Shown here: positions 4,801 to 62,580 of the stretch, in pieces
How the letters are laid out: every line of letters starts with the position of its first letter
Numbering within the stretch: the first letter of the stretch is position 1
Assembly: GCA_044892505.1 (NCBI GenBank)
Contig: CM097882.1
Coordinates: 331,638,001 to 331,702,000 of the forward strand
DNA length: 64,000 bases
Reading direction: 5' to 3'
Origin: Schmidtea nova
Taxonomy: Eukaryota
Translations under genes and position numbers: made by a program
Notes under the pieces: generated by a model
What the model saw: only the letters and a program-made list of their open reading frames with translations
Database searches by the model: none
What the model was told of the DNA's origin: nothing

Positions 4801-5350
4801 TAATTGATTTTACTATGCTTTAGATTTTTATCGGAAAAATTGAGAGAAAAATTTATTTTAAAACGCTGCCGATCACCTTAATCGATACCCGATTTGAATT
4901 TAAAATTAGAAAATCAAAAGCAGGAACACTTGCTGAAACACTTCTAGAACTTTAACCCTCTTCAAAATGATTGAATTTGATTCTGGTTCGGTTTGGGATC
5001 CACCATTTGGTCCACATTTGACATAAAAATAATAATAATAAGAAAAACAAATAAGAATAAAGAAATATTAATGTACTTAAATAAATATCAGTAAAAATGA
5101 ATTAAAAGTAATAAAAAATATTAATTTAATATCAAAAATTAGAAGAAAATAAATGGAAAATGTCAAAATGTTAAAGAAAAAATGATATTTAATTATATTT
5201 AAAGCAAAATATAAAAAGTAATAAAGGAAAAAGAATTACTAAAATTCTTAAATCAAAATAAGAAAAGTTAGCGATTTAAAACAAATTAAATCGATTTTAC
5301 TTTTTAGAAAAATTTATTATTTATATTGATATGATGATCAGCTTCAAGCT

Positions 5351-5385
5351 GATTGGTCCAAAATTTGATCTGGTCAGTATAAATA
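5351..5385 (+). promoter_or_regulatory. Inverted CCAAT (GATTGG) plus TATA box, copy A
   Basis: GATTGG 5351, TATAAATA 5378. Same 27-29 bp spacing in four other copies. Confidence 0.7.
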
Positions 5386-5676
5386 CTGATCCAGATTCAG
5401 ATGAATTAGCATATTTTTGAGCATAGCAATTTGTTAGCATAGCATATTTTTTAGCATAACAAATTTTTAGCGCATTATAGCATTATCAAATTTTTGAACG
5501 ATCATTTGATACTGACATTTTACTGTTAAATTCTTAAAGATTTTTTGTGCAGAAATTCAAAGGTATATTTGATTTAATTTTGTTTTCTGTTATGATGATT
5601 TCTGTCACCATTATTTAAATATGAATAAATTTTTTGAAAGTTTATATGATTTACTTTTTGAATCTAGAATAATTTA

Positions 5677-5960
5677 AGCTTCTTCCACTGTGTGATCGGT
5701 GGAAGGAGACGACGATATTTATATGTTTATTTATATTTTATTGAGCTTCTTCCACCGTGTAATCGGTGGAAGGAGGCAACATTATGGTATTCAAGTAGCA
5801 ATTAGATATGAGTATAACTTTTATAAACAATTTTTTGGTCGAGCTTCTTCCACTGTGTAAACGATGGAAGGAGGCGAATTTATGTTATGTAGAGTAGTTA
5901 CTGTAGTTATATATATTATTCAAGGGGCTCCGATCACCGTGAAATCGGTGAAATGGAGGC
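5677..5960 (+). repeat. Array of four ~34-bp GC-rich hairpin repeats with AT-rich spacers
   Basis: agcttcttccacYgtgtRatcggtggaaggagRc at 5677, 5744 and 5842, plus a variant at 5926. Confidence 0.9.
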
Positions 5961-6745
5961 ATACTGTGCCGAGTAGAATGACTGCTCCGTACAGTTAGGC
6001 CGTCCGACCGGTGTAAAAGCGCCGCAGGGAGGGTAGGATTTTTACTAACCATGATCACTAACAATTTTTATTACTGGATAGTATAACCAGCTGGAGTTTT
6101 ATTTTATGATAGATTTGGTTATTATGAATTCGAATTTAAGTTTGATTTGGTTATTATGAATTCGAATTTAAGTTTGATTTTTAACAATAATAGATGTGAT
6201 TATTATTGACCTGATTTGACATTTGGTTAGTAAAATAGTATCCTATTTTTTGATTGTCACATCTGGGGTTTGTGGGCACAAAGCGGCAGATACAATGTAT
6301 AGAAATTCGTACAAAATACACCTTCTAACACAACAACATCAAAGAAAAATCGATAACTTTAATAGCGTAGTGATCTACCACGCAAGCAGAATATTATCAA
6401 TAGGCTAAAGGATCACATATTCAACACATATAATTAATATAATTGATTATCCTGAACCCTGTACATAGGGCAGTAGATCATAGTTGTATCTTTAATAATT
6501 TATTATCCTGATTGCTGTACATAGCACAGGCGTGAATAAATAAAATATATTATCAAATGAATGTATCTGATCGCTGTACATAGCGACAGTGTTGAAAGTA
6601 TAATATGAATATCATTTTCTTCTCCTGAATTGAAAACTAATGGACGTAAAAAATCATGAGATATATTTAAACCAGAGAAACCTAGTTCATATTAATATTA
6701 AATTCTAGAAAAATTTCATTCCACTCAACAACTCCTCAAACAGAA

Positions 6746-7303
6746 TTGGACAAGGCATGGCGTATTATCCGCAGCCTGGAGAAAGAGATGTTGCGAAAAT
6801 CCGAAAAGATAAAAGAAGCCGATGTTATGATTTCAAATTTAAAGAAGAGCTGGTTAAGTCCAGAGCAAATGAAGGCGCAAATTATCAAAAATCAACGCTC
6901 ACAGCGAGCAAACGACGAAATAAAGTTGGAACTGGATGCGACTAAGATGGAGCTGAAGAAATGCCTAAAATCAGTGACAGCTGCTTATCTCGACCAGGAG
7001 TTAAGACAACTCATCAGACCAATTACCTATCAGCATTGGGCTGAAGAGAAATCAGGATGTTCGAAAGGAACGAATACTGATGAACCATCTCAGGTTCAAG
7101 CAATAACAGCATCAAACACACCAAAAAGCGCTACAAATCCAGAAGTCAAAAAGAAGAAGAAGAGTAAGATGGGCGCGCGTCAGCGTCGATGGAAGAAGCA
7201 AGTACTTCAACAATTGGCACAACATTCAAAAGAAACTCCGGAGATCGATTTGACAATGAACTTTGTAGTTTCCGACGAAGACATTATTAAATATTTTGAA
7301 TAG
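6746..7303 (+). CDS. ORF2-family orphan protein (coiled coil, ELRxLIRPIT motif, Arg/Lys-rich segment), open frame; true start uncertain
   Basis: 185-aa ORF aligning by eye with the ORFs at 15868, 18196, 40225 and 44994. Confidence 0.8.
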   Translation: MDKAWRIIRSLEKEMLRKSEKIKEADVMISNLKKSWLSPEQMKAQIIKNQRSQRANDEIKLELDATKMELKKCLKSVTAAYLDQELRQLIRPITYQHWAEEKSGCSKGTNTDEPSQVQAITASNTPKSATNPEVKKKKKSKMGARQRRWKKQVLQQLAQHSKETPEIDLTMNFVVSDEDIIKYFE

Positions 7304-7637
7304 GGATTTTGTGATTTAGTTGTGTAAATTTTCGCTTATTAAATAATTTTTGTTTTGTATTTATTTTATTGTAAAGTATATGAAATAAAGTGATTTATTA
7401 AAGATTTAAAATAATTTAAATGAAAATATAGATTATAACTAACAATAGGATTGACATAAATATAATCTACAATAAGAGTATTAAAGAGATAACATATTAT
7501 AATTGATTAATGATTATTTGTTGATATTGTAAAGAAGGGGGCTGAAAGAAAAGTTAAAAGTTGAAACATTGTAAAGAGAAGGGGGCAGAAAGGAAAATTG
7601 AATTAAAAGATAATGAATGCGGATAGATTAAAGTAAA

Positions 7638-7888
7638 GCGTAAGTCCTTCTATCGGCAGCGAGACGAACCCGTGAACATAAATGGGGAGTAGTTTTAGCA
7701 ATAGAGCTCACCTTCCCATCATTGTTCAAACACCTTGCACATTTCCAACTCGATTATTACAGGGAAATGGTCGAAGGTGCTCGTGTGATATGTAAGCATT
7801 TTATGTTAGGTCTTGGATGGAGGAATCCCTAGAGCGTTTAATAATTGTTTTATCTTTTTGTTTTAACCCATCCAAAAACACCACAACA
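7638..7888 (+). ncRNA. 3' structured RNA module, copy A
   Basis: gcgtaagtccttctatcggcagc block; GTTTTA-GCAA-TAGAGC hairpin; TTGGATGG/CCATCCAA terminal stem. Confidence 0.7.
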
Positions 7889-8091
7889 CACTTCTAGAAC
7901 TTTAACCCTCTTCAAAATGATTGAATTTGATTCTGGTTCGGTTTGGGATACATTTACTTAGACATTATCCTTGAATAACGTAGTTTAATTTGATATTAAT
8001 AAATATATATTGATGTGATTCTTTATTTTAATCACCGATTTAAAATCTTAGTGAATGTTTACAGATTAACTATTGATTATGGGACAAATGG

Positions 8092-8316
8092 GCAATAAAC
8101 TTTCTATCGGTAGCCCTTGAACCCATTGTGATGTTCATTCAATCATAGTTTCGATTTTTCAACGCTCACTGTTTGCGAACATCCATCCATTTGTTGCATT
8201 ACCAACGTTACATTATGACGGGCAACAAGATGGGTTTGCCTAATGTTTTATGTATTGAGTTGTTGATGATGAGCCACAGCAACATCAAAGTCAGGTTGAT
8301 GGTCAACAGCCCACCA
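8092..8316 (+). ncRNA. 3' structured RNA module, subtype II (copy I), ending CCCACCA
   Basis: ctttctatcggtagccc block; CATTA-CC-AA bulged hairpin; homologous to 19520-19741 and 49065-49286. Confidence 0.65.
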
Positions 8317-8734: not shown

Positions 8735-10044
8735 GTTAGCTTTTATTGAAAATTATGTCAATTTTAATATGCATTTGTAGTATATGATATCCGTAAATGC
8801 TATAACAAAGTGATTCTGATAATTTTAACATTTAATGGTATATATAAAATATCAATATCTACAAATAATTGCATCACTACATTGCCGTCTTTTAGGTCAT
8901 ATGTCGAATATACTTAATTCGTTCAATTAAAACATTTTTATCATTAAAAATCACTCTGCGAAAGCATATTTTTTTGATAATCCATATTCTAATATTTTTA
9001 AGATTGTTTAATTTGCATTGGTATTACGATTGGTTAAAATTCTTTAATGCATTGGCTTAGTACTAAATGGATAACACAACTTTAGTTTATCACTTAGCAT
9101 AATTAGTTTATCACTTAGCATAATTCGTTAACCGAAGTTGGAAATGTGACACAGGCCGATGAGTGTCCTCAAAAATTATTTTTCATTTCTAAAAGTGAGA
9201 CTGAAATACTTTGGATTCATGGATTATCAATGAAAATTTAATGTCAAAGATATCTGGTTCCATTAAGTCATATTCTAAATCATCATTATATTATAATAAA
9301 TCATCATACCACATAACATTTTCGGCAATATTTCGGTTTTTTATAATGTTTAAACTTAATTCTTTTAAATTATATAAACCATTAAATTTTAGTTCTTCTG
9401 GCCATTTTTCAGCCATCCTTAGTTCTTGACCATCCAGTTAAACTTTCAAAATATCACCATTGTATTCATCACATAAAATTCTATCGATACACATCAAAAC
9501 ATTATTTTTTTGTAATATTTTCAAGATTAAAATAAAACATAAGCCAAATGTGTTAGGTCAATTTTTCCCCGTTTATACTGCACATGGTCAGTAAATATGC
9601 ATCCGAGTAAGCCAGAAATTTGTAAACCAAAATTGTTCAGACTAATTTCTTCATGCATAAATTTGTATAAGGACTAATTTTTTGCACAATTATATTGTAT
9701 ATGGCGTGATACAATTACCAGAATTATTGCGGTTGTCCAGTATTTAACAGATTTAAGAAGACATTCAGTGAAAAGTATGTAGCCTGAATTTCCGTATATA
9801 ATTTTTAAATATTTAATAAAAAAAGTTATGTTAAGAGGTATTATTATTTTATTTGTAATTCTAATTTATTATACGATATTACATGAAATTCCAAATGACA
9901 TAAATTTCCGTCATCCATCGCCAATTGTTGATAAATAAATGACGGGAATTCACATGTCCCGTCTTCAAAGTGTTAATAAGGCAATGTTTAGCTTTTTATA
10001 GGCGATTCTGATATATTACATAAAAGGAACAATGGAAATTTCTT

Positions 10045-11325
10045 GGTAAAGGTAGCGTATGGGAGGGCCAATTTTTAAAATTAAATAATTAATAAAAATT
10101 TATTAAATAAATTGATATTATATTAAAAATAAGTTATATTATATTAAAAATAATTAAAAAACTAATTACGACAAAACAAGAGTTTACATAATAAAAACCA
10201 CATCAAAGCAAAATTAATGTGATACATATAAAGTAAAGTAAAAATAGACAATCTCAAGACAAATTTAATACCACCATATTATGTTACCATATTTTTTTCT
10301 TGCATTGTTTCCATAAAGATATTAAATACTGCTCGATCATGAACGAACCGCCTTCTCCAAATAAATTCATCAACGTAGCTTGGTAAAAACGAATTAGGAG
10401 AACCGAACATGTACTTGAATTTACGTTTGCATAAGGCCCAAGAGCCTTCAATACTATTGGTATGCGCGCCTGTAACTGGATCGATGAAGTGCAAAGAATG
10501 ATTGACCCATTGATGTTCGTAAGGACCTAGTAGTGCGAGTGGTGTAGGATGAGAAGTGTTTCGATTCGGCCCCCCGTATACGTTGCATATTCATCCGACC
10601 AAATCAATGTCCCTGGCAAAACTACTCCCCTAATAATCGGGAATATAGTTTCCTGTTTTCTATCTCTCACAAATTCCAAATGTACATTTTTAGTAGCTTC
10701 ATCGAAGATACCAAACACCCAACCTGCAGCGGTGTTCCCCCTTGGCTCCCCTCTATGGTGCTTCAAACGCATGAACTTGGATTCATCGATCTGCACTCTA
10801 CGTCCAATACCACCGAATACCAAAGGCTCTCGTAACAATTTCCAGCTACATAGATCTCTGAAGTACTGAAACCACTGTACTATTGCTGTTTTGGATATTC
10901 CAGTGTACAGTTTCACTTGTTTGATTGATGTTTCTGCGCTCCAAAAATATACCAATTCAACTAGTTGACTAAGCGGCAAACGGGAAGTTTCAAAATAACT
11001 CCCATGTGTAACGTACCTTTTCTTCCGGTGTGAATTATTTCGTGTTCTATCACGACATTCGTATAGGTATTTATTCAGTACATTGTTTTCTGCTACCAAT
11101 TTCATGTTCCTTCCGCAAATTTCACATAAAGGTGGACCTTTAATAAGGCCATTATTTTCGCAAAACGTTATGCATTCTTTTGCATCGTTTGTAATTGCAT
11201 ATAATTCTTTTAACAGCATGGTTATTTATAATAAAGTTTATAAAATTTATAATATCAATTTATTTAATAAATTTTTATTAATTATTTAATTTTAAAAATT
11301 GGCCCTCCCATACGCTACCTTTACC
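10045..11325 (-). mobile_element. Merlin (IS1595/ISXO2-like) DNA transposon
   Basis: 78-bp perfect TIRs starting GGTAAAGGTAGCG; 8-bp TSD AATTTCTT at 10037 and 11326. Confidence 0.95.
10279..11219 (-). pseudogene. Merlin/ISXO2-type DDE transposase with one frameshift near 10540-10570
   Basis: VQIDESKF, WVFGIFD, IWSDE, then in a shifted frame HQWVNHSLHFIDPVTGAHTNSIEGSW and YVDEFIWRRR. Confidence 0.9.
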
Positions 11326-11573
11326 AATTTCTTAAAAGTTTTTGAAATGTTGGCGAAATTTGAACAAGTTATTTCAAATTATATTAATAATATTAATTTC
11401 ATTACAAGTTTTTAAAGGTGATTCTATATCTAATGTTGAAGCAGATGACTTTTAAAATGAATTAATGATGTACAAAATCATTAATGATGATATTATTTAT
11501 TCTTTAAATAATTTGTAATTTATTGAAGCAAATAATTTAATTTCATCACTTTCAAACTTTCCTGTAGTTTTAA

Positions 11574-12006: not shown

Positions 12007-12607
12007 ATTATATCTCGACTGGAATTAATCAAGCTTATCACGAGCCGTTCCTTCGCCTGATCGCACCCGTTATACCCATTTACTTTTCACCCTCATTTAA
12101 CCACCTCTCCTAACACAAATTCTCCTCCCTTCGCCTTTATTTTATATTTCGTGCATAAAATCAGTCTCAAAATTTTCTGACTATCTCTCACCTGGTACTA
12201 GGGATTGTAGCCCGGGATCCCAGTGTTTCCTTAAATCCAGAAATTCCGGGATTGAAATAACTAACCAAGGGATTTATGTTTTAAAATATTTTTCTCTTCA
12301 ACATTTTCTAAGAATATAATTCTCAACAAATTTTTATTTTTTATGAAATGTGAGTTGCTATATAGGTAAAAACATTAATTAAGAATTGAATAAAAATAAT
12401 TCTAAAATATATATTAAAATAAACATTCTGTAATTAATTTTTCAATGACCATAAATCAATTTATTATAGACTATTATAATTTTAAAATATAATTTTTACA
12501 ATATAGATAAATATATTTAACAAATATCTTTCATTATCATTTGGTTAAAATGTTGTATTTTAAAACATTTTTTTAGTTTTTGTTTTTTTTTTCATTTAGA
12601 AATCTCC

Positions 12608-13600
12608 ATGGCTTACAAAGACTATTCAACTAAAAGTACTTCTGATATTTGAAAACATTTTTAAGTTGTAAAAACGGACAAACAGCTAAGTGTATGCTGA
12701 CTAACTACCAGAAAATTGCTAGTGGTTCTACAAAAGGTCTTCATACGCACTTAATTTTGGTTCATAAAATTAAAGCTGTACTCATTTACTTCTGCCGAAG
12801 AAAATTCATTAGAATTAGAAGTTCCCCCAAAGAAAAAGACAAAAAACTTACCGATTATTTTTCAGTTTTGGAATGTGAAGACAAATCACTGAAAGCTACT
12901 CTTGCACGCTTAACTGCCCTTGATCGTATTTCGTTTAACGTTATAAGTTCTTCTGATTTACGTGCAGGTCTAGAAGCTAGTGGATATAAAAATCTACCCA
13001 CATCAGCTAACAGAGTTCGAAAAATTGCTATATAATATAGTAATAAATTAGAAAACTCAATAATCAGTGAAATATCTAATAAAAAAATGTTGGATATGTT
13101 GTAGGAGAAAGATTTTCGTTATCCTTCGATGAATGGATGTCACTAAAAAATCGACGCTATTTAAATATTATTGTACATGGAGAAAATTCGAATTTTTGGA
13201 GCTTAGGTTTAGCGCGGATATGTGGCACATTACCAGCTAAAAATGTATTGAATTATTGGAAGAAAAACTGGCAAAACATTAACTTAATCTCGATACTGAC
13301 ATTGTGGCAATTATGACGGATCTTGAAAGCTTAATGAAAAAAGTAGGCAGAATATTATCTGTAGATCAACAGTTATGTTCTGCACATGGTGTGCAGTTGG
13401 CAGTTATTGATGTAATTTATAATAGGTTGGAAATTAAATCAGATCAGCAACAACGAAAAAGAAATTTATTTCACAGACATAGAGTGACTCGTGCCTGGAG
13501 CAGGATGTTTTTGACAATGAAGAATTCTTTGACAGTAGTCTGAGTAATGGAAGAAATTAGATAACTAAAACAAATATTGGTCCACTGATAGATAAGGTAC
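12608..13600 (+). pseudogene. hAT transposase 5' part (BED finger, FDEW, CxAH motifs)
   Basis: DI*KHF...C...GSTKGLHTHL; SFDEWMSLKNRRYLNI; QLCSAHGVQLAVIDV. Confidence 0.85.
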
Positions 13601-15188
13601 TGTTGGGCCAGCCAAGTAGAGGTCACGCTTGCAATTAAATAAAATAATAAATTAATTAATCAAAGTAGACAAATTACCCCACAGTAACAAGAAATCTAAA
13701 TAAAACAAAAATAAACATAAGAATAATCAATAAAAGAAAACACAATTACCAAAATGGTAACAAATGGGATTCATGTCTGACTGAACCTAGAAAATAACCT
13801 AGAAATCAATAGAATTAATAAAAAATATATTTGTAAATACCGACAATCCCAAGGAATGGATTAAATCTTAAAAACAAATAATGAAATAAAATTGACAAGT
13901 AAAGCAATCTGTTACCCATATTGGGATGCACGGTAAACAAAAATCGGTTAAAAAATAAGAATTGATAGAAAAAAATAAGAAATTAAAAAAAATAACGGAA
14001 ATAAAAAGAAATCGATCGAGAAATAAAGTAAACAGCGGTTATGGCGAATTAAAAAAAATAAAATAAAATGAAACGGAATAAAAATATAAAAATACGAAAA
14101 AATACAAGAAAAAAAGATACTTCTGATTATAATAAATAAACAATAAAATAGAAAAAAAAGAAAATAAATAGAAAATAAATAAAAATTATCAAATTAAATA
14201 ATCCAGCCAATTAAAGACTTGGTTCGGATTTGATTGGTTAACTGAACGTCAAAATTATTATATAAAGGGCGCTTGATTCAGCGTAGGAGCAATTATTTGC
14301 TAAGCATTTTTTTGAATTTTTTAGCATTAAATAATTATCATCGACTACTATCAGTGCAAATCATCGTACTTGAACTATAACCGTTGAACACCAAATTTTC
14401 CAAGAGACATCGAATCAATATCACCGAAATTCGTTTACCGAAGCGAACTATCTTAGAAGCACTTGTGGAAAATTTCATTGTAACTCTCTCAGTTTATAAT
14501 ATATGTATTATAGTTAAAAGTCAACGTGTTTTGTTATTCAATACTGTGTTTTCATATGTTCAGATTTTTCGTTTAAAAGAGATAATAATTTTCAGTTTTT
14601 GGAAGCTATGGACGGCCAATGGGGTCGCCAGCTCCGTGGTGATCTGTTTATTAGGTCTGCCCCAAGATAGGCTGGATGAAGAGAACATCAATTCCAATTG
14701 AAGTGTAGAGTAAGTAAAGTGAATTAAGGATGCCTAAATGCCAATGTAGACCGGTCACGTCCGAAATGTACGAAATTAGCTAACCGTGAACTAAAAGTAG
14801 AATCATGTAAATCGTGAATTACCCTAAATTATTTTGTCAGAAAACGAGATAGATAAAACGGAAAATTCCGTAGTTACATTGATTCCAAGCCGATCCAGCA
14901 ATTTGAAATACCAATTGAAATCATCAGCTAGAATACATTCTTTACCCGTGATTAATTCCGCAAAGTATGTGGATCGACATCATCTAATAAAATTACATAA
15001 TAACCGATAATAGCGAAACCACTACATCAGCCCCCATCGGAAGATGCGGAGCGCATTTTGAAATACTATAAAAATCATTATTAAAAGAAGAGTGAATATA
15101 CCCAAAAGGAAGTACAGTGAGTCAAGGGAGGAGTCGGGTGTAAAGGGGCCGGTGCACGAGGAGGAGAAATTATGACAATTTTATTCTG

Positions 15189-15509
15189 ATGGCAATGCCT
15201 CTGAAGCGGAATATCCCTTCCAAGCTTGCTCGAGAAATTTTCTTAGACTACTCAGAGACGCTCATCATCTATCGCGATAGCCCCGACCATATAATCTGGT
15301 TCGGTGGGCCGGAGTGGCCAATTGACGTGGCAGATACGTCAAAGTATTTTGTCGAGACTCCAATTGATGTCGCGAGTCTCGAGATCATACAGTTCGTGGG
15401 CACCATATCGGCCGGGGAATTTCGGAAAATTGACCAAGAAATATACGACGGAGATATATATGCACCTGTTCCCGACTCACTTGAAAGCCTAATTGGAGCT
15501 GATGCATGA
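15189..15509 (+). CDS. ORF1-family orphan protein (MPLKxIP...RDxPxxIIWxGxxEWPI), open frame
   Basis: 106 aa; motif shared with the ORFs at 25043, 33028, 39434 and 45819. Confidence 0.75.
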   Translation: MAMPLKRNIPSKLAREIFLDYSETLIIYRDSPDHIIWFGGPEWPIDVADTSKYFVETPIDVASLEIIQFVGTISAGEFRKIDQEIYDGDIYAPVPDSLESLIGADA

Positions 15510-15867
15510 ACCCAAAAGCTACTAACATCCTCATTATCCTAATATCTGTTGTAAATTACCTAAATAAATCTTTTGTTATTAAAGATTGGTGTTCTAGCTG
15601 TAATGAATAGATTATGATCAAGCTGATTTTAATAGAGTATGGAAATAGTAATCGAGCTGTAGGCGATAGTAATAAAGCAATGATAGCGACCGTAAAGGTG
15701 ATAGACGGAGTGTAAATCCACTTAGAGGAGAACCAGTATTAAGCGATACCCAGGGTAGATCTATACTCATAGGTTTTCAGGTAGCGAAGTTTATTACCCA
15801 GTAATATTTGTAGGGGCAGTACAACAAATTCATATCATGATATTTAAATAATAATCATTTAAGGAGT

Positions 15868-16290
15868 ATGTCAAACATGAACGTAGATAGGAACGATCCA
15901 GGCATAGGGATCCTAAAGAGGAGAGTTGTAGAGCTGGAAGGTACATATTTTTAACCAGCCGATATGAAGATACAACTATTCAATTTAGCCCGGATGCGAG
16001 AAGCGAATGATGACCTCAAGTTAGGGCTCGAAGTTGTCCGGATCGAGTTGAGGAAGTGTAGAAAATATATTACGGGAAGATTCGTAAGGGAAGAGCTAGA
16101 GAGCCTAATCAGACCATTAACTCTATCTGAGTGGTACCCAGAGGCCGCCGCCATTAAACACTACGAGATAGAAGTACATGGACCACCGCCGAAGAGGAAG
16201 CGGAAGAGGATTAGTTCTAAAAAACGGCAGAGATGGAAAAGACAGAGGATGGAGGAAGAAAACAAACGACTTGTGTCCGAAGACGTGTAA
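15868..16290 (+). pseudogene. ORF2-family protein with one in-frame TAA
   Basis: MSNMNVDRNDPGIGILKRRVVELEGTYF*PADMKIQ...EELESLIRPLT...KRKRKRISSKKRQRWKR. Confidence 0.75.
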
Positions 16291-16481
16291 TGCGTTGAAT
16301 GATTATAAATATATGCATTTACTTCGAGTCGAATTTTTGTTTTTATTTGATAATTTCAGCCATGGTGCGTAGTAAAGTAAGATAAGAATAACCCTAAAAT
16401 CGCGTGTTCCGCTCTAGAGTCAACCGTAGATTAGTTACACCCATAATTAGTGACCCGCGACTGGGGTGAAACGGGAATTAA

Positions 16482-16684
16482 GCAAAAGCCTTCTATTGGT
16501 TAGTAGGGAAAAATCGAGAGTAGTTTTTGTAAAGAAGCTCACCTGCCGATTCACATTCGCCTGTTTTGAACATCACCATCGTAAGTAGTTAGAGTATTTA
16601 CGGGCACATGGACAGTATGATTTTTGTGTTATATTACAACCCTAGATGAAAATAGGAATAAGAAAAACCCAATCGAAACCAGCG
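16482..16684 (+). ncRNA. 3' structured RNA module, copy B
   Basis: AATCG/CGATT stem; GTTTTT-GTAA-AGAAGC; CGTAAGTA/TATTTACG. Confidence 0.65.
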
Positions 16685-16696
16685 AATAAAACCTAG

Positions 16697-16743
16697 CCCT
16701 CGTACCCAAGATTGTCAAGCAAGAGTGAGCGTTGATCTGAGAA

Positions 16744-16814
<71 letters not shown>

Positions 16815-17920
16815 ATTGACTTCCTAAACATTTATGACGAACCGGCTGTTACATTGTTGAACGTCGTTAATTCCATTTGTGAAATAGAGTAATATAACGA
16901 GGAGGCCCGGGATGGCTAATTACTGACCAATTTTATTCGCCGAAGTTCGGGCGACTCCTAATTTTACTAAAAGGTCAAAATTTTAAATCCCAATTAAATT
17001 AAAATTATTAAGCCCAAATTACAAATACATTTAAAATTCTTTATTATTAACACCAAATTACAAATACATTTTTAAATCCCCATCAGTCACATCTAAATTT
17101 AAGGGGTGGGAATGATCGCTGGGGCCCACTACAACAATCCTAAATCCCCCCCATTAAATTTACATTTAATTTTAAATTTTTAAAAATTTTATAATAAAGT
17201 GCGGCGCTATGACCACTACAAGAAATCAGAAGGCTTACCCGCTTTTGCGTGCCACCCCCGCTCTGCTACCCGATCAAAAACCATTAAAGGGGAACTTGCA
17301 AGATTGGGATTTCAACTTTTCACCTCACCCCTCGTTCCCAAGATTGTCAAGCAAGAGTGAGCGTTGATCTGAGAATGCAATATATATATATATATATATA
17401 TGTATAAGACTGACGTCCTAAACATTTATGACGAACCGGCTGTTACATTGTTGAACGTCGTTAATTCCATTTGTGAAATAGAGTAGTGTATCGAGGAGGC
17501 CCGGGATGGCTGATTACTGACCAATTTTATTCACCGAAGTTCAGGCGACTCCTAATTTTAATAAAAGATCAAAATTTTAAATCCCAATTAAATTAAAATT
17601 ATTTAGCCCAAATTACAAATACATTTAAAATTCTTTATTATTAACACCAAATTACAAATACATTTTTAAATCCCCATCAGTCACATCTAAATTTAAGGGG
17701 TGGGAATGATCGCTGGGGCCCACTACAACAATCCTAAATCCCCCCATTAAATTTACGTTTAATTTTAAATTTTTAAAAACTTTATAATAAAGTGCGGCGC
17801 TATGACCACTACAAAAAATCAGATGGCTTACCCGCTTTTGCGTGCCCCCCCGCTCTGCTACCCGATCAAAAATCATTAAAGGGGAACTTGCAAGATTGGT
17901 ATTTCAACTTTTCACCTCAC
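16697..17920. repeat. Tandem duplication of a ~600-630 bp unit containing a TA tract
   Basis: Units start ccctcgt(a/t)cccaagattgtcaagc at 16697 and 17329 and are highly similar. Confidence 0.9.
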
Positions 17921-18195
17921 TTCGGCCCCTCGGGAAGGAATACGAGATCAGTCAACCGGAGTTCTCACTGGAAAATATACGCCGTGCACCCATAAATCAA
18001 TGGCTCCACGAAGCTTATGTCTTCGGCAGCGCATAATCATCGAACGAACTATTTGTGTGCCATAGCATCTAATAAATTCGAATTTTGAATTTAGTTTTAT
18101 TGATTAGGCTAATTTTTTTCATTTCATAGAATAGAATGTTCATTAATACCAAATAAAAATTTCCATAAATAACCATTAATTAAAGTACCTTCAGT

Positions 18196-18789
18196 ATGAA
18201 CCAGGAAACAAGCCAACAAAAATAACTCGATAAAATGTGGAGGATTAAAAGGGCTCAAGAGAGGGAGCTAGAACAATTAAAGGCCCAACTGGCAAAGGTA
18301 CAAGCCCAAGTACAGTATGTAAGGAAGAGCTGGTTTGCGCTAGCCCGAATAAAAGAGCAGATAACCCGAACCAAACGGGCGCAGCTGACAGCGGATGATT
18401 ATAAAGTAGAGTGGGAGGCCACCAAAATAGAAATGAGAAAGTGCCTCCGCTCAGTGACAACTTCTTTTATCGTAAAAGAGTTGCGGTCTCAAATTAGACC
18501 TATAACATATCATAATTGGGTGACGTAAAGAAAACCGACTTGTTTAGTTGGAACCGATATAGAAGGCCTAAGTTCCACGATAGCGTCAAGTCCAGCAGAA
18601 CCTCCAAAAACAATAAGCTCCACAGGCGGAGTTAGGAAAAGGAATAGGATTGGTTCAAAGCGTAGGCGTCAAAAGAAGTTGTTTGCACAGCAACTACATG
18701 CGCAAATCGAACACCTGACGAATCTAGGCAACAACGAATTATTGGCAGAGGTTTTTTCCATGGAAGGAATTTTTGAGGAGTTTTTGTAA
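18196..18789 (+). pseudogene. ORF2-family protein with two in-frame TAA codons (copy C, 5'-truncated element ending at 19208)
   Basis: MNQETSQQK*LDKMWRI...ELRSQIRPITYHNWVT*RK...RKRNRIGSKRRRQKKLFAQQL. Confidence 0.8.
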
Positions 18790-18975
18790 ATAATAAAGTA
18801 TTCGTGAAGGTGTATCGGAGTTTTGATGTTGTTGTTCACATTTTTTCCTTTAACTTTAATGTAGCTAAAATTAAACTAAATCTGGAAAGAACTAGCAAGG
18901 GGTAGTTAATCTAGTAGAATTAAACGATAAAGAATCATTACACGGGAAATTTGTTTAATTAAAATGTAGACGATA

Positions 18976-19208
18976 GCGTAAGACCTTCTAACGGCAGCGT
19001 GAACCCGCGAAAATAAATGGGGAGTAGTTCTAGCAGTAAAACTCACCTGCCCATCATTTTTTCAACCACCCTGCGCATCACCAACTTAACTGCATAGGGA
19101 AATAGTTAAGGGCGCTCGTGTGGAAGTTGCAAATGTTTATGTATGGTCATCGGGTATCCCTAGCATAATTACGTGTTGATTGTTTTCGGCCCACCCATAA
19201 ACCCAGCA
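18976..19208 (+). ncRNA. 3' structured RNA module, copy C, ending AAACCCAGCA
   Basis: gcgtaagaccttctaacggcagc; ATGGG/CCCAT; CTTAACTG/TAGTTAAG. Confidence 0.7.
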
Positions 19209-19277
19209 TTACACATTTCAAAATGGAATAAATTCACAATAAAAATTTTTAATAATATATAAGTAATTATTTTTCGT

Positions 19278-19519
19278 TTACATGTGGTTTTTTTCAAAAC
19301 AAGGTACCACACAAAGTGGTACTTCATAGGTCGAGCACCAGTAACGTGACTCTACGAATATTATTTTTTGAACAGACTGCACATCTTCGACATATTTGCT
19401 TTCGATGATGTAGCTGGAATGAAATTGGGGAAATGTTTTCCGATGAGACGTGTAGGTTTGGAACTTTTTGTTGGTCGACCAATGTTGTTTGAAATCGGTG
19501 TATGCTGAAGTATATATTG
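19278..19519 (-). pseudogene. piggyBac transposase C-terminal Cys-rich domain fragment
   Basis: RLIGKHFPNFIP...KMCAVCSKNNIR/ESRYWCSTYEVPLCVVPCFEKNH*. Confidence 0.75.
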
Positions 19520-19741
19520 TGGTGGGTTGTTGATCGTCAATATGACCTTGACGTTGCTATGGCTCTCATCAACAACTCAACACATAAAACATTGAAATAA
19601 CCATCTTGCTACCCGTCACTATGTAACGTTGGTACTGTAACAAGTGGGTAGGTATTCGCAATCAGTGAGCGTCGTCAATACGAAACTATGATTGACCGAA
19701 TATCTCCTGTGTCCAGGGGCTACCGATAGAAGGTTTAATGC
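19520..19741 (-). ncRNA. 3' structured RNA module, subtype II (copy J)
   Basis: CCTTCTATCGGTAGC; CAATCA-TA-G..C-TCAC-TGATTG; CTTGTTA-CAGTA-CC-AA-CGTTAC/GTGACG-GG-TAGCAAG; GTTGTTGAT/ATCAACAAC. Confidence 0.7.
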
Positions 19742-20172
19742 CCATTTTTGTCCCTTCGACGATTTACCTATAAGCTTTCAATAAAAATTTTATCGGAAAT
19801 TCAACATAAACATTCTACATAATTATAAATTTATTATTGTATACAAATATATTATTCCGAGCATCAAAAACCCTAATATAACTTTATATTTTACCAATAT
19901 TGCAATTTACGATAGTTAACACATAAAATATTTTATTTTTATAGAAAAAATTTTAATCTGCATTTGAAATTTAAGAAAAACTTTAATTATTATTCTATAA
20001 ACAGTAATTTTATAAACAATAAAAATAAATTTTTCTTTTGTTTAAAATTGTTAATTTAATAAAAAGGACAAATTATCTCAATTCAAAAATCATATTGACT
20101 TTAAATGTAAGTTTTTGAATTTTTTCCCTAAATTGATTAAATAATGATTTCTAAAGCTCAGACCAACAAAAG

Positions 20173-20428
20173 ATGGATATCCCCAGCAGCTATGAAGTCA
20201 GAGAAGAATTCTCCCATCCGGAATGGGTCAAAAAACTAGAATTCCAGCTCCTACGAAGCAAAATTGCCAACTTTATCGACAAGGTAATATTTTGATTATT
20301 TGAGAATTATAATTTATCTATAACAATTTTAGAAAGAATTTTTAAAGAGAATCCATTGGAACCCTCCCTTCAATAATTGCAAACGGGAAAAATCCTTGCC
20401 GGAGATTTTTGAAGGCCGTCAATTTTAA
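20173..20428 (+). CDS. Putative 68-aa two-exon orphan gene antisense within element J (exons 20173-20283, 20333-20428)
   Basis: ATG...GAC AAG|gtaat...ttttag|AAA GAA TTT...TAA. The 49-nt GT-AG intron matches host intron size. Confidence 0.5.
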
Positions 20429-23033
20429 TCAATAAATTTTTAGATAAATTTTTCGTTTTTACTTTTTTTCCGTTTGATTTTTTATCATTTTTATGTCATT
20501 TTGGTAAGTAGAAAGATTATAATGTAAATGGCCTGTTTGATTGCACTAGTTTTGACTGGGTATATTTAATTTTAAAGATGGTATGGTTGAATGAAAGCAA
20601 TTTTTGTATGGTTTTTCTGGATGTGTGATGCTAACTAACATAACTGTAGAATTTTCGGTATGGTTTGCTTGTGTGTATATAACTGTAGAATGTTAATAAA
20701 TGATACTGTGTATGTGTGTATATTATATTTTAAATAGATGTTGCTTGTGTATTAGTATGGAAGATGCTATTGAATGAAGTGGATGTAATTTTTTGCAAAT
20801 ACGGATGCGTTATGATTTTGAGATATCGTGGGGGTAGTTATAGTATACTATATATATAAATTATATAAAATATTTTTAAAATTAAAATAATAATAATAAT
20901 TTTTATAATACTTTTTATAAATTTTAAATTTATAATTTTATGAAAGTAATATAATAATAAAATTTCTAATTTTTATAATATTCATTTTTAAATTCAAATT
21001 TTTATATTTTAAGAATATATATATTAATAGTAAAAATTTTTCTATGAAATTTCGAAATTTTTGAATTTTCTAAAATGATAAAATTTTCAATATAATAATA
21101 ATATTTTCGATTTAAAATTTTTATGAGTTTCTATATAATTTTTAATATACAAATTCTCTGGAATTTTATGAAATGATAAAATCTTTTAGATAATAACAAT
21201 ATTAGGAAAATTTTGGTTTACAATTTTTCATTATAAAATTTTTGCAGTATAATAAAAAGTAAAATTTTTATTTTTGATCAAAACGAAATTCACATAATAA
21301 TAAATTTTTATCCACAAATTTCGAAATCCAAATAAGCATTCGACCTAAAAAGTTTTGTATACTGCATAAAAATGAAAATAAAATAAGTTATAAATTTTTC
21401 AACGAATATTTTTAACATCAAGTAAAGTGAATTTCGGTTTCGTCCAAGCATGAATTTCCCAATCAAAGTGCGCGCGAATTTTTCGGGACACTTCACTTAG
21501 GAACTTCAGGCTCCCGAAAAACAAGATTCACTAGAGAAAATTATTTAGATAATAAATGGGGTTAAATTCAGATCATCAATACTTGTCCTAATAATTCATT
21601 TCATTTCGTGATCATTATATCAGTTTTGAGCATTTTTTCATACGATTCTTTTTTCAATATTAGCTTCCATTTCACTTGCGTTTTCGGATAAGATGACAGT
21701 TGTTTGCGAGAAATGAAGGCGAATGACGAGTAAAATGTTCTTGCATAAATTATTTTTCATAATGGAAAAGGCATTGCTGGAGAAAATCATCTTTACGTTT
21801 ACGTGTGGTATTAATTTTTAAACGATGAATATGTCAGAAATTATAAATTCGGATAAACTACCTTTATTATAAATCAAATATCATTAATATAACATCTTGC
21901 CTTTGGCCAAGCCACTGTTCCCCAGTAGGGATGAAGTGAACATGGATGTTTAGGCTATTCACCTGGACTCGGAAATATGGGCTGATCGATTACGAATCGA
22001 ACCAGCGATCCGCCCAGGCTACTTCCACCCGATCGGCACATGGCCAGACACAGACTTCAGGGGGTACGGAAGCAAAAAAAAATTATTAATTTTATTTTTG
22101 TGCAATAAATATTAAAATGAATTTCAGTAAAATATGGGAACCTATAACAAGATTAAAATCAAAATAATGAACAAAATAACTTTCATTAAATATTTTATAT
22201 AATAATTAAAATTGATTATGATAAATATAGACAATCAATAAAATTAACAAATAATAAAATAATACCAGGTACGGGGTAACTGAAAGGGCATGCTGTTCAG
22301 TGACCCCGCACCGAACAAAAGAATGCTTCTTACCAAATTTTTTTTTCCACAAATTCTTCAATTCTAAAAAATTTTCCCACTAAATTCTCAAAAATTCTGA
22401 TTATTGCCATTTTGATGGCGGTATATATACCATCGATTTTGCGTTACCTTCAGTAGTGTAATAAAACAAATTGTTCTAGAATTTTCCTTTTAATTTTTCT
22501 AATTTAATTCTAATGATTTTCCGAAAATTAAATCCATATTTTTGTGTAATAATTTTTTACAAAACACAAATAATTTATTTTAATTCAAAATTTTTATTTT
22601 TGAATCGAAATTTGTTCGATTTGATTTAATTTACGATATTTCGATCAATATTAGTTCTTTTTGTTAATGTGAAATATTTTGATAAAATCACAATTTTCGG
22701 CTAAAATTTTGTTAATTTTTTCTGCATGAAGGTTTTATAACACAATTCCGTTTTTTATGGGTATTTTCAATGGGTTTTCCGCCTATTCTAACTTTCAAAC
22801 GTTCTTCTTTTGATGGCATTTGATTTTTCTCGAGGTTTCAGTGTAAGGGCTTTCAGACTTACAGCTAGCGCGTTCTCTACTGGTTGATGTATTTTGAGTC
22901 CACTTCACCTTTTGGTGTTTTTTACTTAATCGTTTGGATTTTTAATGGATATTTGGGTTAAAACTGAATCTTGCGCGCTCTTAACCTATGGGGTTATCGC
23001 TTTATTAAAACAATTTGTGGTTTTTGCCCAACA

Positions 23034-23640
23034 ATTGCTCAACAATTTGTTCAATACATTCGATTAGAAAATTCATTCGACTTGGTTTGTCATTATTCTT
23101 TTTATATAATATGTATGAATTCAAGCTAATAACATCTCTAAGATGTTATCCTTTTTCTTGCAATTGTATATGTTGCGATTATTCAATCGCTTCTGTCGAC
23201 ACCCCACTTTTTTACCATAATCAACAAATACTTTTGATTTAATTACTACAAGACCTATTTTAATATCCAATTAGCACCATGAATTGTACTCAGAAAAAGC
23301 ACAGCTCTTGTCCCGCCACTTCAATAACATAATTTTATTATTATTTATCGCCATACATTCACCCCATTTTAGTGTAGTTGTTTTTATAGTTGAAGGAATG
23401 CCAAGCTTCCTCTGTTGGATTGTACCAACAATATCGTGTTTGGAGGTACATAGGCTATTAGCGAGTTCTATGCTGGTGTACAAGTTATTCACATATACTC
23501 TATTATCCCTGATGTAATAGATCAGGCGATAGTTACAAAGCGATACGAGCTGCGGTCTTATATTCAGGATGATTATGACCATAATCTGTATTTTTACCGG
23601 TGTATAAACAGAAATTCTAAATGTATTCTGATTCACTTTC
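23034..23640 (-). pseudogene. piggyBac transposase central fragment
   Basis: NLYTSIELANSL...VGTIQ...LKWGE...LLKWRDK; GVDRSD; LNSYILYK. Confidence 0.8.
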
Positions 23641-23869
23641 GCATATTACATATAGCTCATAAACCAAGTAGAATCATGGAAGACATAAAGTAAAACAACT
23701 AATTAATTAATATTTTTATTACTTTTTATGGAAATTTGGGATTTTGTAGTAAAGGATAATTTTTTATTTTCCATGACGTGTATACACGTCGAACGCACTG
23801 GGATAGAGTTTTGAATTAACGTGTATACACGTCAAACACAGCTAACTGGTTAAAGATGCAAACAGTGAT

Positions 23870-24458
23870 TTAAGTAAGAAATTATATAAAGCTTTCATAC
23901 TTCGTATGAAAGAACGCCGCACAGATCTAAGTGGTTTTCTACAATACTTACACAATGACATAAGCAACGTCTCAAGAATAGATTTTATCTCAGTTCCTTT
24001 TTCAATTAAATGCTGTAAACTAATAGTGAAGTTACCTGTAAGGCTAAACGCTGCAAAAAACCACTGCATTTCTAACAGCTCATGCAACTGGATCTTCTAT
24101 TTCAAATGAGGTAACACTTGAAATTAATTCAGATCCTGATTTAATAACTGAATCAATTTGTACACAAAAACCATTAAGTGTAGCAGAGTAATTAGTTAAA
24201 ATTATTAAAGATGAATATGCATCAATGTAGGTAATTAGATTTGAGACACTCATCAAAAATTCAAAAAAGAAATGTCTCTGTTTGAAAATGGAGGGAAACG
24301 TGGAGACTATCTGGGAAGCAGATATTCCTTTTTATGACGTTAAAGTCTACTAGTGATGCCTGAACGAGCATTTTCTTCGGCAGGACAAATTGTAAAAAAA
24401 ATAAGAAGTCGTTTAAACGACGAAACGCTGGAAGAGCTGTTTCTAAAAGCATATTAAA
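23870..24458 (+). pseudogene. hAT transposase 3' part (dimerisation domain)
   Basis: ERAFSSAGQIVKKIRSRLNDETLEELFLKAY*. Confidence 0.85.
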
Positions 24459-25042
24459 AAAACTCAAGAAATAATGATTTTTTTTAAAATTTCATTCTTT
24501 AGCATTTCTTATTTGTTTTATGATAAATTGAGTTTTGTTTTGTTTCGACAAATAATAATAAAAAATCATTTTTTATTTATTTGCTCACTTTCATGTAATT
24601 TCAACTATGATAATTGTCCATTTCTAATCCAGGTGCCAATCCCGGGATCCCATTGATTGAAAATACAACACGGGATGGCAAACCCTACCTGGTACCCTTT
24701 TTGACTTTCGGCCTTTCTAACTCTATTTACCTTAAGTATTTACAGCTTCCCACGATGTCTTTCCATTCATTATAGTATGTTGCCTGGTTCGTTACCACAA
24801 TGAGTTAAACACATTAGAAATCTTATTTTATACAGATCCTAGTCTTGCAATTCACCTCACCCTTTATTTAAATTTTTATTTATTAATATAAAAAATTGAA
24901 TTAACAAGGCAAGAACAACAAAGATTTATAAAAATGCTTCTATTAAAATTAAATTTCGATTAACTAAACACACAAGGTTACAAAAATGTTCACGTAATCA
25001 CAAAAATTGTAATCGTCAATTGCGACGCATCTCCCAATCAGT

Positions 25043-29177: not shown

Positions 29178-29933
29178 CCCATCCAGGATGGGCGTACTAT
29201 ATATAGTAACTCAAATATCTTGAGAACGGATTAACAATTTTTTTATTTAGGAATCATTTGAAAGATAATTAAAAGATGCACATTTTGCACATTTTTTTCC
29301 TATTGTAAAATTACATCCTGTTCAAAAAATCAATAAATTGAGAAGTTTTTATAAAAAAAGTTTTATTTTGAATTTTATATCTGAAATGAATAATTCTAAC
29401 TCTACTATTTCTGAATTTTTTTGTGATGAAGATTCTGGTTCTGAAACTGAAATCGAAGATTATTCAGATTCAGGTAGTGAAAATTAATCAAATTTATCAA
29501 GTTCAGATGGTTTTGATGGTCATTTTCACCCTAAACAATGGAATTTTACATTAATCCAGGTGTAAATTCAGAAATTCAATTAGATTGTTTTTTTCAATTG
29601 ATTATTTTGAACAATTCTTCGATGAAGAATTTATAAATGATATTGTTATTCAAATAAATACTTATCATCAAGTGTTCAAATCAAGAATATTCAAATAGTG
29701 CTCCTTGGTATGATACAAGTTCGAGTGAAATGTATGTGTTTATCAGTGTAATCCTGCTAATGGGAATAGTGAAAAAGCCGTGTATCAAAGATTATTGGTC
29801 AACAAACCCATTACTTGAAGCTTCAATGATACCTAAGATGTTTACAAGAAACAGATTCTTAGCTATACTTCGCTATACTTTTTGAATAAAAAACACTTAT
29901 TTTTTTAAAAAACTTTTTAAAAAACTTTAAGGG
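29178..29933 (+). mobile_element. piggyBac deletion derivative
   Basis: TTAA|CCC...GGG|TTAA; internal FEQFFDEEF...LMGIVKKPCIKDYWST...MFTRNRFLAILRY. Confidence 0.85.
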
Positions 29934-33871: not shown

Positions 33872-34800
33872 TGTTGGGCTGAGCAATCCACACTAAAAGG
33901 ACAAAGTAAATTAAAAATAACTCTAGAAATATAAAAATAAAACCTACCGTTTGAGCTAAAAATGATCTAGAACAAATAACATAAAAAATGAATTAGATCA
34001 AAATTAAATCACCATTCCTGAGAAAATGGTAGAATAATGAAAACTGGAGGCGAGGGCGGAGATATAAAATAAAAATATAAAAAATTACAGAGAAATTGCA
34101 CCATTTAAAGTACAATTAATTGATTTATTACCTGCACCTTGATCCAGCTGATGGAATTTCTAAAATTAAAATAGATAAACAAGATAAACAGGATAAAATA
34201 AATAAAAAAATTACTGTATACCAGTCGGTAGAATGGATCTGATTGGTCAAATAAAAGACCCGAATTGGTATAAATACCAGTGTCAGATCACTGAGAATCA
34301 GAATTTCTAGTTGTTACCATTATACTTGTTTCGAGAAAATTTTGTAAAGAAATTTTGACAATAAAAGGTATTATTCTTATTTTGTTCAATTCATTTGGTT
34401 AAACCCTCATGATTTCATTCCGGGAAAATTATTAAGGTTAAGCCCTTGTGGTTTCTGACCCCAGGGTTTCCGTCCTTTCGGTCGTGATCCTTCGGGATTG
34501 CGCCAATGCGGTGAATTGCACTAAACGTGTAAATAGGGAGGGAGTGGCACATAGGTCATGAATTTTCACATTTGGAAGTGTAAGAGGAATCTCATCCAAA
34601 TTAGGTGAATTTTTCAAGTCAGCTATTTAACGATCCTAGTCAGGGTTACGGTCACAGTTATTTGCATTAGACAATTGTAAACTTTATAAGCAACATCTTT
34701 TTAGGTGATTCTAATCTATCCATCGGGACGCCATTCCGATTGACACTAAAAGAGGTTAATTTAGTTATTGAAAAGCGATTTCCGAATTGGGTTTGTGAAT
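33872..34800 (+). mobile_element. 5' fragment of a TG..CA element (copy G); right boundary approximate
   Basis: Starts TGTTGGGCTG; A-rich leader; GATTGG 34241, TATAAATA 34269; aaaccctcatgat shared with copy D. No 3' module found. Confidence 0.65.
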
Positions 34801-35614
34801 GTTGCACTGGAAAGAATGATTAGGTTTCCGATCTGATTATCGACAATACGGTGATTTTCCCGTAGTAACTACGGACCATTCCTGACAACGATCCGTAATC
34901 CTCAAAAATGTTTCTAGAAATCAGACGTTGCCTTCCCCTGAATATTATCTTTCCATGAGGCAATAAGTGAGGGGATTGAGTTGGAGTGGCTTTCCCAGCC
35001 AGGATTAGCGATATTTCAGACGATTCAGAACACCAGTAGTAGGACGACCCTTATGATCAAACTGAATCGTTTTGGGTACCATTAAATTCAAAACGCACAA
35101 AAAATCGGTGAATTCATAATTATGTTCCACGATCGCGAATTGATGAAAGTTTTCTAATATTTCACGGATAAATATAACCAATACATCAGTTGTTATCTCA
35201 TGAAACCTACGATAATAGTTTCGTCGAATGTTTAGACATAACTAGAGACTCGCAAATAAGGCAATCGTCAACTATGCGGAATCCACATCCGGTGATCGTC
35301 TACTTCGATCGATTTTCGCATTAGATATTTACTGAAAACCTTATTTAAAATCATATTAAATTCTATTGGTGAAGATTTAACTTTTATAGGGATAACCAAG
35401 AAAGTGCTATGAATTCTTCCGAACTCAATGTTCGCTGCGGTTACGTCAGAAGACTCGGACATTCTTCTAGTGCCGAATATAGTGTTTTAACTTATGCATT
35501 TAGTCTATTTAAATGGAGGCAGTGTTTTCCAATCATACACATTATCCTGTTTGAATTACTTTTGAATTACTGTTTCAAAGTAAACTGTGGTGTCATAAAT
35601 TATTAACCTGTTAA

Positions 35615-35829: not shown

Positions 35830-36860
35830 TTAACAAGATGATTTTTCCAATTATTCTGTCAAATTTTTATATGTAGATTTTTATTCTGATGAAATCTATC
35901 AAGCATCTGATTTGGCTATGAAATTTATTTAGCTATGCTAAAATTGAAAATGTAAGATATTTACTCTAAAATAATGGCCAGTCTGGTATTAGTCGATAAA
36001 TTTTAGTTATTATGCTTTCAATTCTCAGGACTAGTGAATTAATTGGGAATTTTTTGCAATGACAAATTATAAAACATACACATTAAATATATTTTATTTT
36101 AAATTACAAAAATTTAATGCATATTTAAAATATTATACATATTAAAATTTATATTTAAATTCAAAAATATGTCCATATTGTGATGATTTTGGATAATTAG
36201 TTGAAGAATGATTGATAAATTTGGTCGAACCACAATGTTCTGATATATTCATTTTTTCTTAATAAATAATTTACTAATCAATAAAATGGTTCATTACATA
36301 TGAAATATAATTATCTTCCTCACTTCTAAAAGCGAATTGAATAAAATATTTTAACAAAATACAGTTGTTATATTTTGATTATGTAAATAATTTTATCATT
36401 AAAATATTAGAAAACATTTAGAACAATTATAGTTTTTCTGAATATTTTATAAATATTTTTACTACAATGATACCAGTAGATTCTATTACATCTTCAGTGG
36501 TTCTTTTTTCTATAAATTTTTTATTTTTTCTTGGAAGGTTATTATTAGATTTTAGCCTTATAATTGAATAACTTTACATTAAGTGGTTGATTCTGGCTCT
36601 TATTGTAAAACTCACTTTTATTTTTTATAGTGTAGTGTGTGCACTTCTTTCTGACAGTTTTGTGTCTCTAATGGTTTTTGTGATTATCTGAGTTTAGAAT
36701 TTAGTTGGATTATTGAATTTTTTTGCTAAAAGATTCATTTAAATTTGTTTATCATTTTTTTTGTTGATTTGTCAAAGTGAATAAAGAGTTTTAGATTTAG
36801 AAGGAAATTAAAAATAAACGCTGTTTTATTAGTTTTGATTTTCAAATTAAAAAAATTGTA

Positions 36861-37014
36861 GATGAAGATGTTGAAAACGGATCTGGTATGTGCAAAGCTG
36901 GTTTCGCTGGATATGATGTGTGCATTTCCATATATTGTTGGTTGATTTTGTCATCAAGGTGTTATTGTCGGTATGGGACAGAAAGACATTTATTTTGGCG
37001 ATGAAGGTCAATCA
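36861..37014 (+). pseudogene. Actin N-terminal fragment with deletions, frameshift and stops
   Basis: ENGSGMCKAGFAGYD / FPYIVG*FCHQGVIVGMGQKDIYFGDEGQS. Confidence 0.9.
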
Positions 37015-39433: not shown

Positions 39434-39889
39434 ATGAATGCAAAACTCCGTCGAGCATACTACTGCCAATCAACGAAACTGAAGACGAACCAGTCGAACC
39501 CCCTACCCGAAGTCCCTTAATCAATCCAAGCCATAGCTGACCGTCACATGCGTAGATGGAGACGCAGGCATGTGGACTTAAATGCAATACAAGGTTCGAC
39601 AGTATATCACTACCGAGTGCGATGAGAGGGCGAACCCTCCTGGCCGAAATCTGACCATGATCTAACGTCCAAGATGCCATTATGGTTCTTCCAATTCGAG
39701 GATTAGCGAAGCAAGCCTCGCTGAATATTGACTTTTGTGAAGATACCAAATCGGATTCTCCATCAAATGGGATATATATTATTGGAACGCCATATTTGCG
39801 TGCATTCCGGAATATTACGGCCATACGCAAATTCCCCAGGGAATCAAAAGATGAATCAGGAAGAATGGATTCCCGACACTTGTATGTGA
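39434..39889 (+). pseudogene. ORF1-family protein with several stops (copy D)
   Basis: PLPEVP*SIQAIADRHMRRWRRR...YRVR*EGEPSWP...LWFFQF aligns with copy E PLKRAPFEIIQQVHLKMWAWRRE...VWYRGCANWP...EWFVL. Confidence 0.7.
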
Positions 39890-47607: not shown

Positions 47608-47639
<32 letters not shown>

Positions 47640-62533: not shown

Positions 62534-62580
62534 GTTTATAATGTTATTTTTAAAATATGTTTACATTCAATAATTGTTAG

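Follow-up and report, generated by a model that had tools for sequence, protein, structure and literature searches.

Long terminal repeats (LTRs) are ordinarily non-coding according to the available text of PMC4667437, which also describes solo LTRs bearing the sag gene, of mouse mammary tumour virus (MMTV)-like type, in 490 of 527 contigs (omega 0.289). Gene-bearing solo LTRs are hence already known, as are multi-kilobase LTRs, which measure 1.9-6.5 kb in Ogre (available sections of PMC6431247). In bdelloid LTR elements, whose LTRs measure 159-551 bp, extra open reading frames (ORFs) follow pol (accessible text of PMC5408684). In the literature covered, largely open-access main text, no account was found of LTRs of several kilobases with orphan genes placed behind their promoter. 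Here we describe element J, inserted in a piggyBac transposase remnant in a 64,000-nucleotide (nt) stretch of the Schmidtea nova genome (GCA_044892505.1, contig CM097882.1, positions 331,638,001 to 331,702,000; hereafter the window). J reads right to left, its own sense being the minus strand, and its 3' domain is shared by ten units in all, J included (Table 1). We consider J and its kin to be probably solo LTRs, derived from divergent retroelements with long LTRs in which accessory genes reside.

The original prediction held that J splits a piggyBac reading frame with an exact 4-bp duplication. ATTG was indeed present at both 19516-19519 and 23034-23037; the intervening 3514 nt (19520-23033) have TG at the start and CA at the end. 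The host remnant fits piggyBac in having PF13843 and a C-terminal cysteine-rich domain, both broken. The flanks were compared with P0001 (297 aa), the sole piggyBac relative obtained from 43 candidates, which matches piggyBat and Protein Data Bank 6x67 transposases. By tblastn, P0001 residues 181-217 aligned to the right flank (23145-23035, minus strand, 70% identity) and residues 221-267 to the left flank (19504-19364, minus strand, 60% identity). Fourteen excision sizes, five in frame and nine out of frame, were compared by P0001 score. The highest score, 276, went to excision of J together with one ATTG; the remaining in-frame sizes reached 268, 267, 270 and 255, and the nine out-of-frame sizes 133-145. 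The claim that removing 19520-23033 and one ATTG restores the minus-strand frame is borne out by this best score, but only locally, as further stops and frameshifts remain in the piggyBac frame. P0001, the one relative in this comparison, is a residue shorter just past the junction, which places a one-codon indel close by. The prediction had also taken the restored frame to fix the boundaries independently of homology. To the base this did not hold: the scores set the size of J only modulo 3 (255-276 for the five in-frame sizes), yet they favour the proposed join. The exact ends of J are given by the duplication, the TG/CA termini and two paralogous left ends, since similarity of both paralogues to J breaks off at its left terminal base (at 49286 and 8316).

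That J is instead a composite or segmental duplication, with ATTG matching by chance, is scarcely credible. The window is a nest of broken, rearranged elements and the 5' 1.5 kb of J has no DNA match elsewhere in it, as such a reading would allow; but the flanks belong to the two halves of one piggyBac gene, and a 4-bp flank match has a chance of p ~0.007 at window composition. Both ends of J also correspond to family termini, in a single orientation, and the spacing of its promoter and 3' domain is as expected. True insertion, as predicted, is further backed by the relatives E4 and E6, each with its own exact 4-bp duplication. The evidence supports an integrase-type insertion into an already broken piggyBac. 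The latter is dead independently of J, with several stops and frameshifts, a missing N-terminal half and one terminal repeat (23839-23853), for which a search found no matching other end. J nested within a dead piggyBac is an ordinary event; the interest lies in J itself. An element bounded by TAGGG ends and flanked by an 8-bp duplication that is exact (CCTGGTAC), without a Pfam hit and presumably hAT-like from its features, spans 12199-24687 and encloses the related units E1 and E2 as well as piggyBac and J, making the nesting at least three levels deep. A second piggyBac fragment lies at 29658-29885.

The units cover ~21 of the 64 kb, roughly one third of the window. The 8-mer TGTTGGGC, with which J starts on the minus strand, occurs six times in the window against 0.86 expected. 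The 3' ends finish in CCCACCA, CCCATCA or CCAGCA, 207-231 nt past a shared motif (seven ends measured). The 5' and 3' ends of the units differ from each other, and TG...CA is accompanied by only a 7-nt imperfect inverted repeat, TGTTGGG / CCCACCA in J, with the ends of E4 and E6 alike. Both ends could be placed in six units. The 4-bp duplication is exact and the ends canonical in three of these (J, E4 and E6); K retains three of four bases (TATA/TATT), E1 is flanked by GTAC on both sides but has a right end of CTC rather than CA, and E5 shows no duplication. Such TG...CA termini, combined with a 7-nt inverted repeat and a duplication of 4 bp, are hallmarks of a retroviral-type integrase. No long ORF or long inverted repeat was found in J. 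Its candidate antisense frame is weakly supported, J2 having a similar intron at the same place without a similar protein; the tblastx matches considered exclude those above 75% identity and those with stops in both frames.

Several local rearrangements were observed among the units. K sits inserted in J2. A 65-bp direct repeat (98%; 4938-5002 and 7888-7952) brackets E7 instead of a 4-bp duplication, and J-like pieces, J3 (~3346-4781) and E8, flank these repeats in opposite orientations. E1 is separated from E2 by a ~600-nt tandem duplication (90%) at 16697-17920, the start of which is formed by the terminal bases of E1. E4 contains antisense open frames of 174 and 196 codons (38542-39066 and 39402-39992, minus strand), and shorter ones lie behind the E3 promoter (34820-35486, minus strand), neither set with a Pfam or PHROGs match.

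The units share an internal plan. Their first 380-660 nt are A-rich in all seven cases (45-54% A). At five places in the window a TATA box lies 15-25 nt past a TGATTGG box, always within units and in sense orientation; shuffled controls gave a mean of 0.17 and a maximum of 3. The upstream box, present in five relatives, is degenerate in J. By its sequence this pattern qualifies as a predicted RNA polymerase II promoter inside the unit, with CCAAT plus TATA in five relatives and TATA only in J. At the other end lies a structured 3' domain of ~230 nt that folds as two bulged hairpins, followed by a hairpin that closes just before the final CA in the predicted folds of seven ends. A covariance model was built from six 3' ends, with J's subfamily excluded. 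It returned 12 matches: the six training ends, two chance matches and the unseen copies in J (Table 1) and in E8, E5 and J2 (E 5e-8 to 2e-4). Across the six aligned copies 92% of cells were paired, and 20 of 36 pairs carried a compensatory change. None of 500 shuffles scored as high, a test inflated by the relatedness of the copies, and slid controls gave ~40%. The sense strand folded better than the antisense strand in eight of nine 3' ends. A 12-row pair count was not relied on, as it held the two chance rows (E 0.69 and 4.7) in a model-fitted alignment. Rfam found no family in any element, its nine weak hits comprising a hairpin near 1.4 kb and a snoRNA-like chance match, and ARAGORN found no tRNA. 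A ribozyme or tRNA-like 3' domain, considered from known motifs, found no support. The source of the Rfam microRNA hits was a near-perfect 150-nt hairpin at 1347-1498 between two N runs, possibly an assembly artefact.

The variable middle of several units holds genes. ORF-B is present in E1, E2, E4, E7 and K, its stop codon lying 183-343 nt upstream of the 3' domain. Over 67 codons in ten pairs, the first, second and third codon positions had identities of 0.57, 0.58 and 0.31, and synonymous (pS) and nonsynonymous (pN) differences were 0.74-0.88 and 0.29-0.54, respectively. These values indicate that ORF-B is a real gene under purifying selection, kept while the families diverged to saturation. 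An arginine/lysine-rich stretch lies near the C-terminus in all five copies. The predicted structure has three long helices (pLDDT 75, pTM 0.31), consistent with a putative coiled-coil/arginine-rich orphan protein, and what we take to be a leucine-rich export-like motif is clear only in copy K. ORF-A lies upstream of ORF-B in E1 and K. ORF-A recurs in two more copies, which together with a 127-codon orphan frame occupy 33605-33071 and 25495-25046 (minus strand), in pieces separated by inserted DUF4371 and piggyBac remnants; no family ends were found there. A match in J to an ORF-B-like 'W-x-SP-x-x-MK' motif (20141-20236) was rejected as too weak (E 0.16, opposite strand).

Database searches returned no relatives of either protein. 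ORF-B had no homologue among 116 candidates, nor among 1.84 billion representatives searched with a five-sequence profile, and ORF-A had none among 329 candidates at E 0.1. Exact look-up of seven window proteins and a PHROGs search of 18 were both empty, and Pfam, applied to 51 translated frames, gave the element ORFs only sub-cutoff hits (E above 0.01). The ORF-B model matched no viral fold at E 0.001, and the ORF-A model was too poor for use (pLDDT 41). We speculate, with considerable doubt, that ORF-B may bind the 3' RNA as an export or packaging factor like Rev, Rem or CERV.

LTR identity is suggested by the unequal ends, the inward promoter near the 5' end and the RNA-like structure at the 3' end. 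No TGG primer site followed any of seven 3' ends, and a clear purine tract preceded none of seven 5' ends. Neither is attached to any unit, as would be expected of solo LTRs, and J behaves like one. A retroelement with very long LTRs would have integrated into the piggyBac gene by means of a retroviral-type integrase, duplicating 4 bp. Recombination between its LTRs would later have deleted the internal part, leaving one LTR between the duplicated bases. The roughly ten units would represent several old, divergent families. They share one plan: TGTTGGGC, an A-rich segment, CCAAT plus TATA, a variable middle, the covarying RNA domain, a hairpin and CA. With ORF-A and ORF-B in the variable middle of several families, the LTR itself may function as a transcription unit, comparable to the MMTV LTR with respect to sag; neither gene occurs in the subfamily to which J belongs. 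An R/U5 structure for reverse transcription or RNA handling is the most likely identity of the covarying domain. E5, in which the 5' end meets the 3' domain within ~350 nt, may be a minimal LTR or a deletion product.

Several observations weigh against the solo-LTR reading. No full-length parent was seen in the window, and Pfam detected no gag, reverse transcriptase or integrase domain in the 51 translated frames. J lacks ORF-A and ORF-B, as do E5 and E6. The ORFs stand downstream of the sole conserved TATA box, which would imply either an R region of 2-3 kb or placement of the cassette in U3 together with another, unconserved promoter ahead of the 3' domain; no conserved TATA was seen just before that domain. 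AATAAA occurs within the 3' domain in only three of nine ends. The fold z-score is below -2 in only four of nine 3' ends, which are mutually related, and is -1.67 in J. RNAalifold gave no pairs on all nine ends, although it gave a structure on the six well-aligned ones, and G-U exceeds A-C by only 31 to 20 in the model-fitted alignment.

In an alternative reading the units would be complete stand-alone gene cassettes, each with a promoter, one to three small genes and a structured 3' end lying between two attachment sites for an integrase. They would be copied probably via RNA or via a small circle and inserted in trans by the enzymes of another element, with no two-LTR parent at any time. All two-ended copies are single units, each a self-contained transcription unit with a promoter, selected genes and a 3' structure; both ends are kept across sizes from ~350 to 3514 nt, and no internal retroelement sequence occurs in the 64 kb. 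We nevertheless regard this as unlikely. A single LTR-like unit has no clear route for priming and strand transfer in reverse transcription. Solo LTRs predict the same picture and usually outnumber full elements (available text of PMC4667437). There is likewise only a slim chance that the group represents a novel type of mobile DNA, namely single LTR-like cassettes, each with a promoter, orphan accessory genes and a conserved structured RNA end, spread by a borrowed integrase in the absence of any two-LTR parent, with ORF-B and the 3' RNA as a protein/response-element pair. If no parent exists, the way of moving would be an undescribed one.

A cut-and-paste origin, in which the units are non-autonomous DNA transposons of the Ginger kind with cargo genes, appears quite improbable. 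Ginger elements make 4-bp duplications and have TGTNR ends (accessible text of PMC2836005, in which Ginger and Gypsy ends are compared), and the TGTTG at the 5' end of J fits TGTNR. Such enzymes may act in this genome, as suggested by a 1.2-kb element at 41558-42755, within J2, whose inverted ends, TGTTA(A/G)GATCA, are Ginger-like and which is flanked by an exact duplication of CTTT. However, Ginger inverted repeats are 40-270 bp in the same source, against 7 nt here, and the other end of J reads TGGTG. The conserved end of the units is also one-sided and covaries like a single-stranded structure. A Gypsy-like integrase gene was absent among the 51 frames scanned, though the copies could be non-autonomous.

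Table 1. Positions in the window of element J, its target site and host, and the related units.
Feature	Coordinates	Strand	Evidence
Element J, 3514 nt, TGTTGGGC...CCCACCA, 7-nt imperfect inverted repeat	19520-23033	-	
J 5' A-rich segment, 45% A (six relatives similar, 46-54% A)	22430-23033	-	
J TATA-like box, 604 nt from 5' end	22421-22429	-	
J copy of structured 3' domain, two bulged hairpins	19598-19738	-	covariance model without J, 42 bits, E 2.4e-8
J terminal hairpin, closing a few nt before final CA	19520-19580	-	predicted folds of 7 ends
J candidate antisense two-exon ORF, 68 codons, 49-nt GT-AG intron 20284-20332	20173-20428	+	
Target-site duplication, left copy ATTG	19516-19519	.	direct sequence
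Target-site duplication, right copy ATTG	23034-23037	.	direct sequence
piggyBac transposase remnant, upstream half with stops and frameshifts	23035-23645	-	PF13843 E 4e-10; tblastn with P0001
piggyBac transposase remnant, C-terminal part, frameshifted cysteine-rich domain	19284-19516	-	P0001 alignment
piggyBac 5' end: TTAA (23850-23853), terminal CCAGTTAGCTG, two subterminal repeats	23776-23853	-	sequence
E1: promoter, ORF-A 15144-15509, ORF-B 15955-16290, 3' domain	13601-16700	+	
E2, 5' end missing: ORF-B 18226-18789 with one stop, 3' domain, end CCCAGCA in piggyBac 3' region	17921-19208	+	
E3: 5' terminus and promoter; no 3' domain found	33872-34330	+	
E4, exact TAAA duplication: promoter, two antisense ORFs, broken ORF-B, 3' domain	37941-41183	+	
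E5, ~350 nt: 5' terminus almost directly joined to 3' domain; right end and duplication indistinct	50163-50512	+	
E6, 1363 nt, exact TAAA duplication, without ORF-A/ORF-B	58492-59854	+	
E7: promoter, ORF-B 6686-7303, 3' domain; 5' terminus not recognised	5003-7883	+	
E8, J-subfamily 3'-end fragment	7953-8316	+	
J2, nearest J relative (77% over 548 nt at 3' end), interrupted by K	47611-49286	+	
K, flanks TATA/TATT: promoter, ORF-A 46343-45819, intact 194-aa ORF-B 45578-44994, 3' domain	44434-47610	-	

The surrounding host DNA is AT-rich (31% GC) and eukaryotic, with short introns. It contains a Merlin/ISXO2-type transposon with ~100-bp inverted ends (10043-11327), a Tc1/IS630-type transposon with 166-bp inverted ends (60169-61374) and a Rab-like GTPase gene (Pfam Ras) with short AT-rich introns (62381-62975). 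Two decayed fragments are, we presume, actin-like (~36860-37010) and HSP90-like (57699-57941).

The nested insertion gives exact ends for a group of elements that standard searches would miss, because it lacks enzyme domains and long repeats and all its genes are orphans. Should the units prove to be solo LTRs, accessory genes and a conserved RNA fold would be retained within the LTRs of several old retroelement families. The genome would then have been seeded with ready-made orphan gene cassettes, and ORF-B and the 3' domain would provide a testable non-vertebrate pair of protein and RNA element.

Among known systems, Ginger1 and Ginger2/Tdd share the 4-bp duplication and a TGT-type end with the units (accessible text of PMC2836005), which lack the 40-270 bp inverted repeats, the CCGG target preference and a detected integrase gene. 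Rev, Rex, Rec and Rem (available sections of PMC2661877) and CERV of C. elegans Cer1 (available sections of PMC10309623) have in common with ORF-B a small arginine-rich element protein by a bulged-stem RNA in or near the 3' LTR. The likeness is anatomical only, consisting of the arginine-rich tail, the helical model and the adjacent covarying RNA, with no match found in sequence or fold. Solo LTRs of the long-LTR Ty3/Gypsy elements Ogre and Burro, as far as the accessible text of PMC6431247 describes them, agree in TG...CA ends, a short imperfect inverted repeat and a short duplication, as well as in an internal promoter, a length of several kilobases and the absence of enzyme genes. Unlike these, the units here hold selected protein genes downstream of the TATA box and a covarying RNA domain common to otherwise non-aligning families, with no parent seen in the window. 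The MMTV-like LTR with sag shares a coding gene within the LTR, a predominance of solo LTRs and purifying selection (available text of PMC4667437). The defining arrangement of the sag type, an ORF within an LTR under selection, was found for ORF-B in E1, E2, E4, E7 and K, and not in J. In that source sag is located largely within the U3 region of a vertebrate retrovirus, whereas here up to two unrelated orphan genes stand behind the main promoter of a unit, in an AT-rich, short-intron eukaryote and with a 4-bp duplication.

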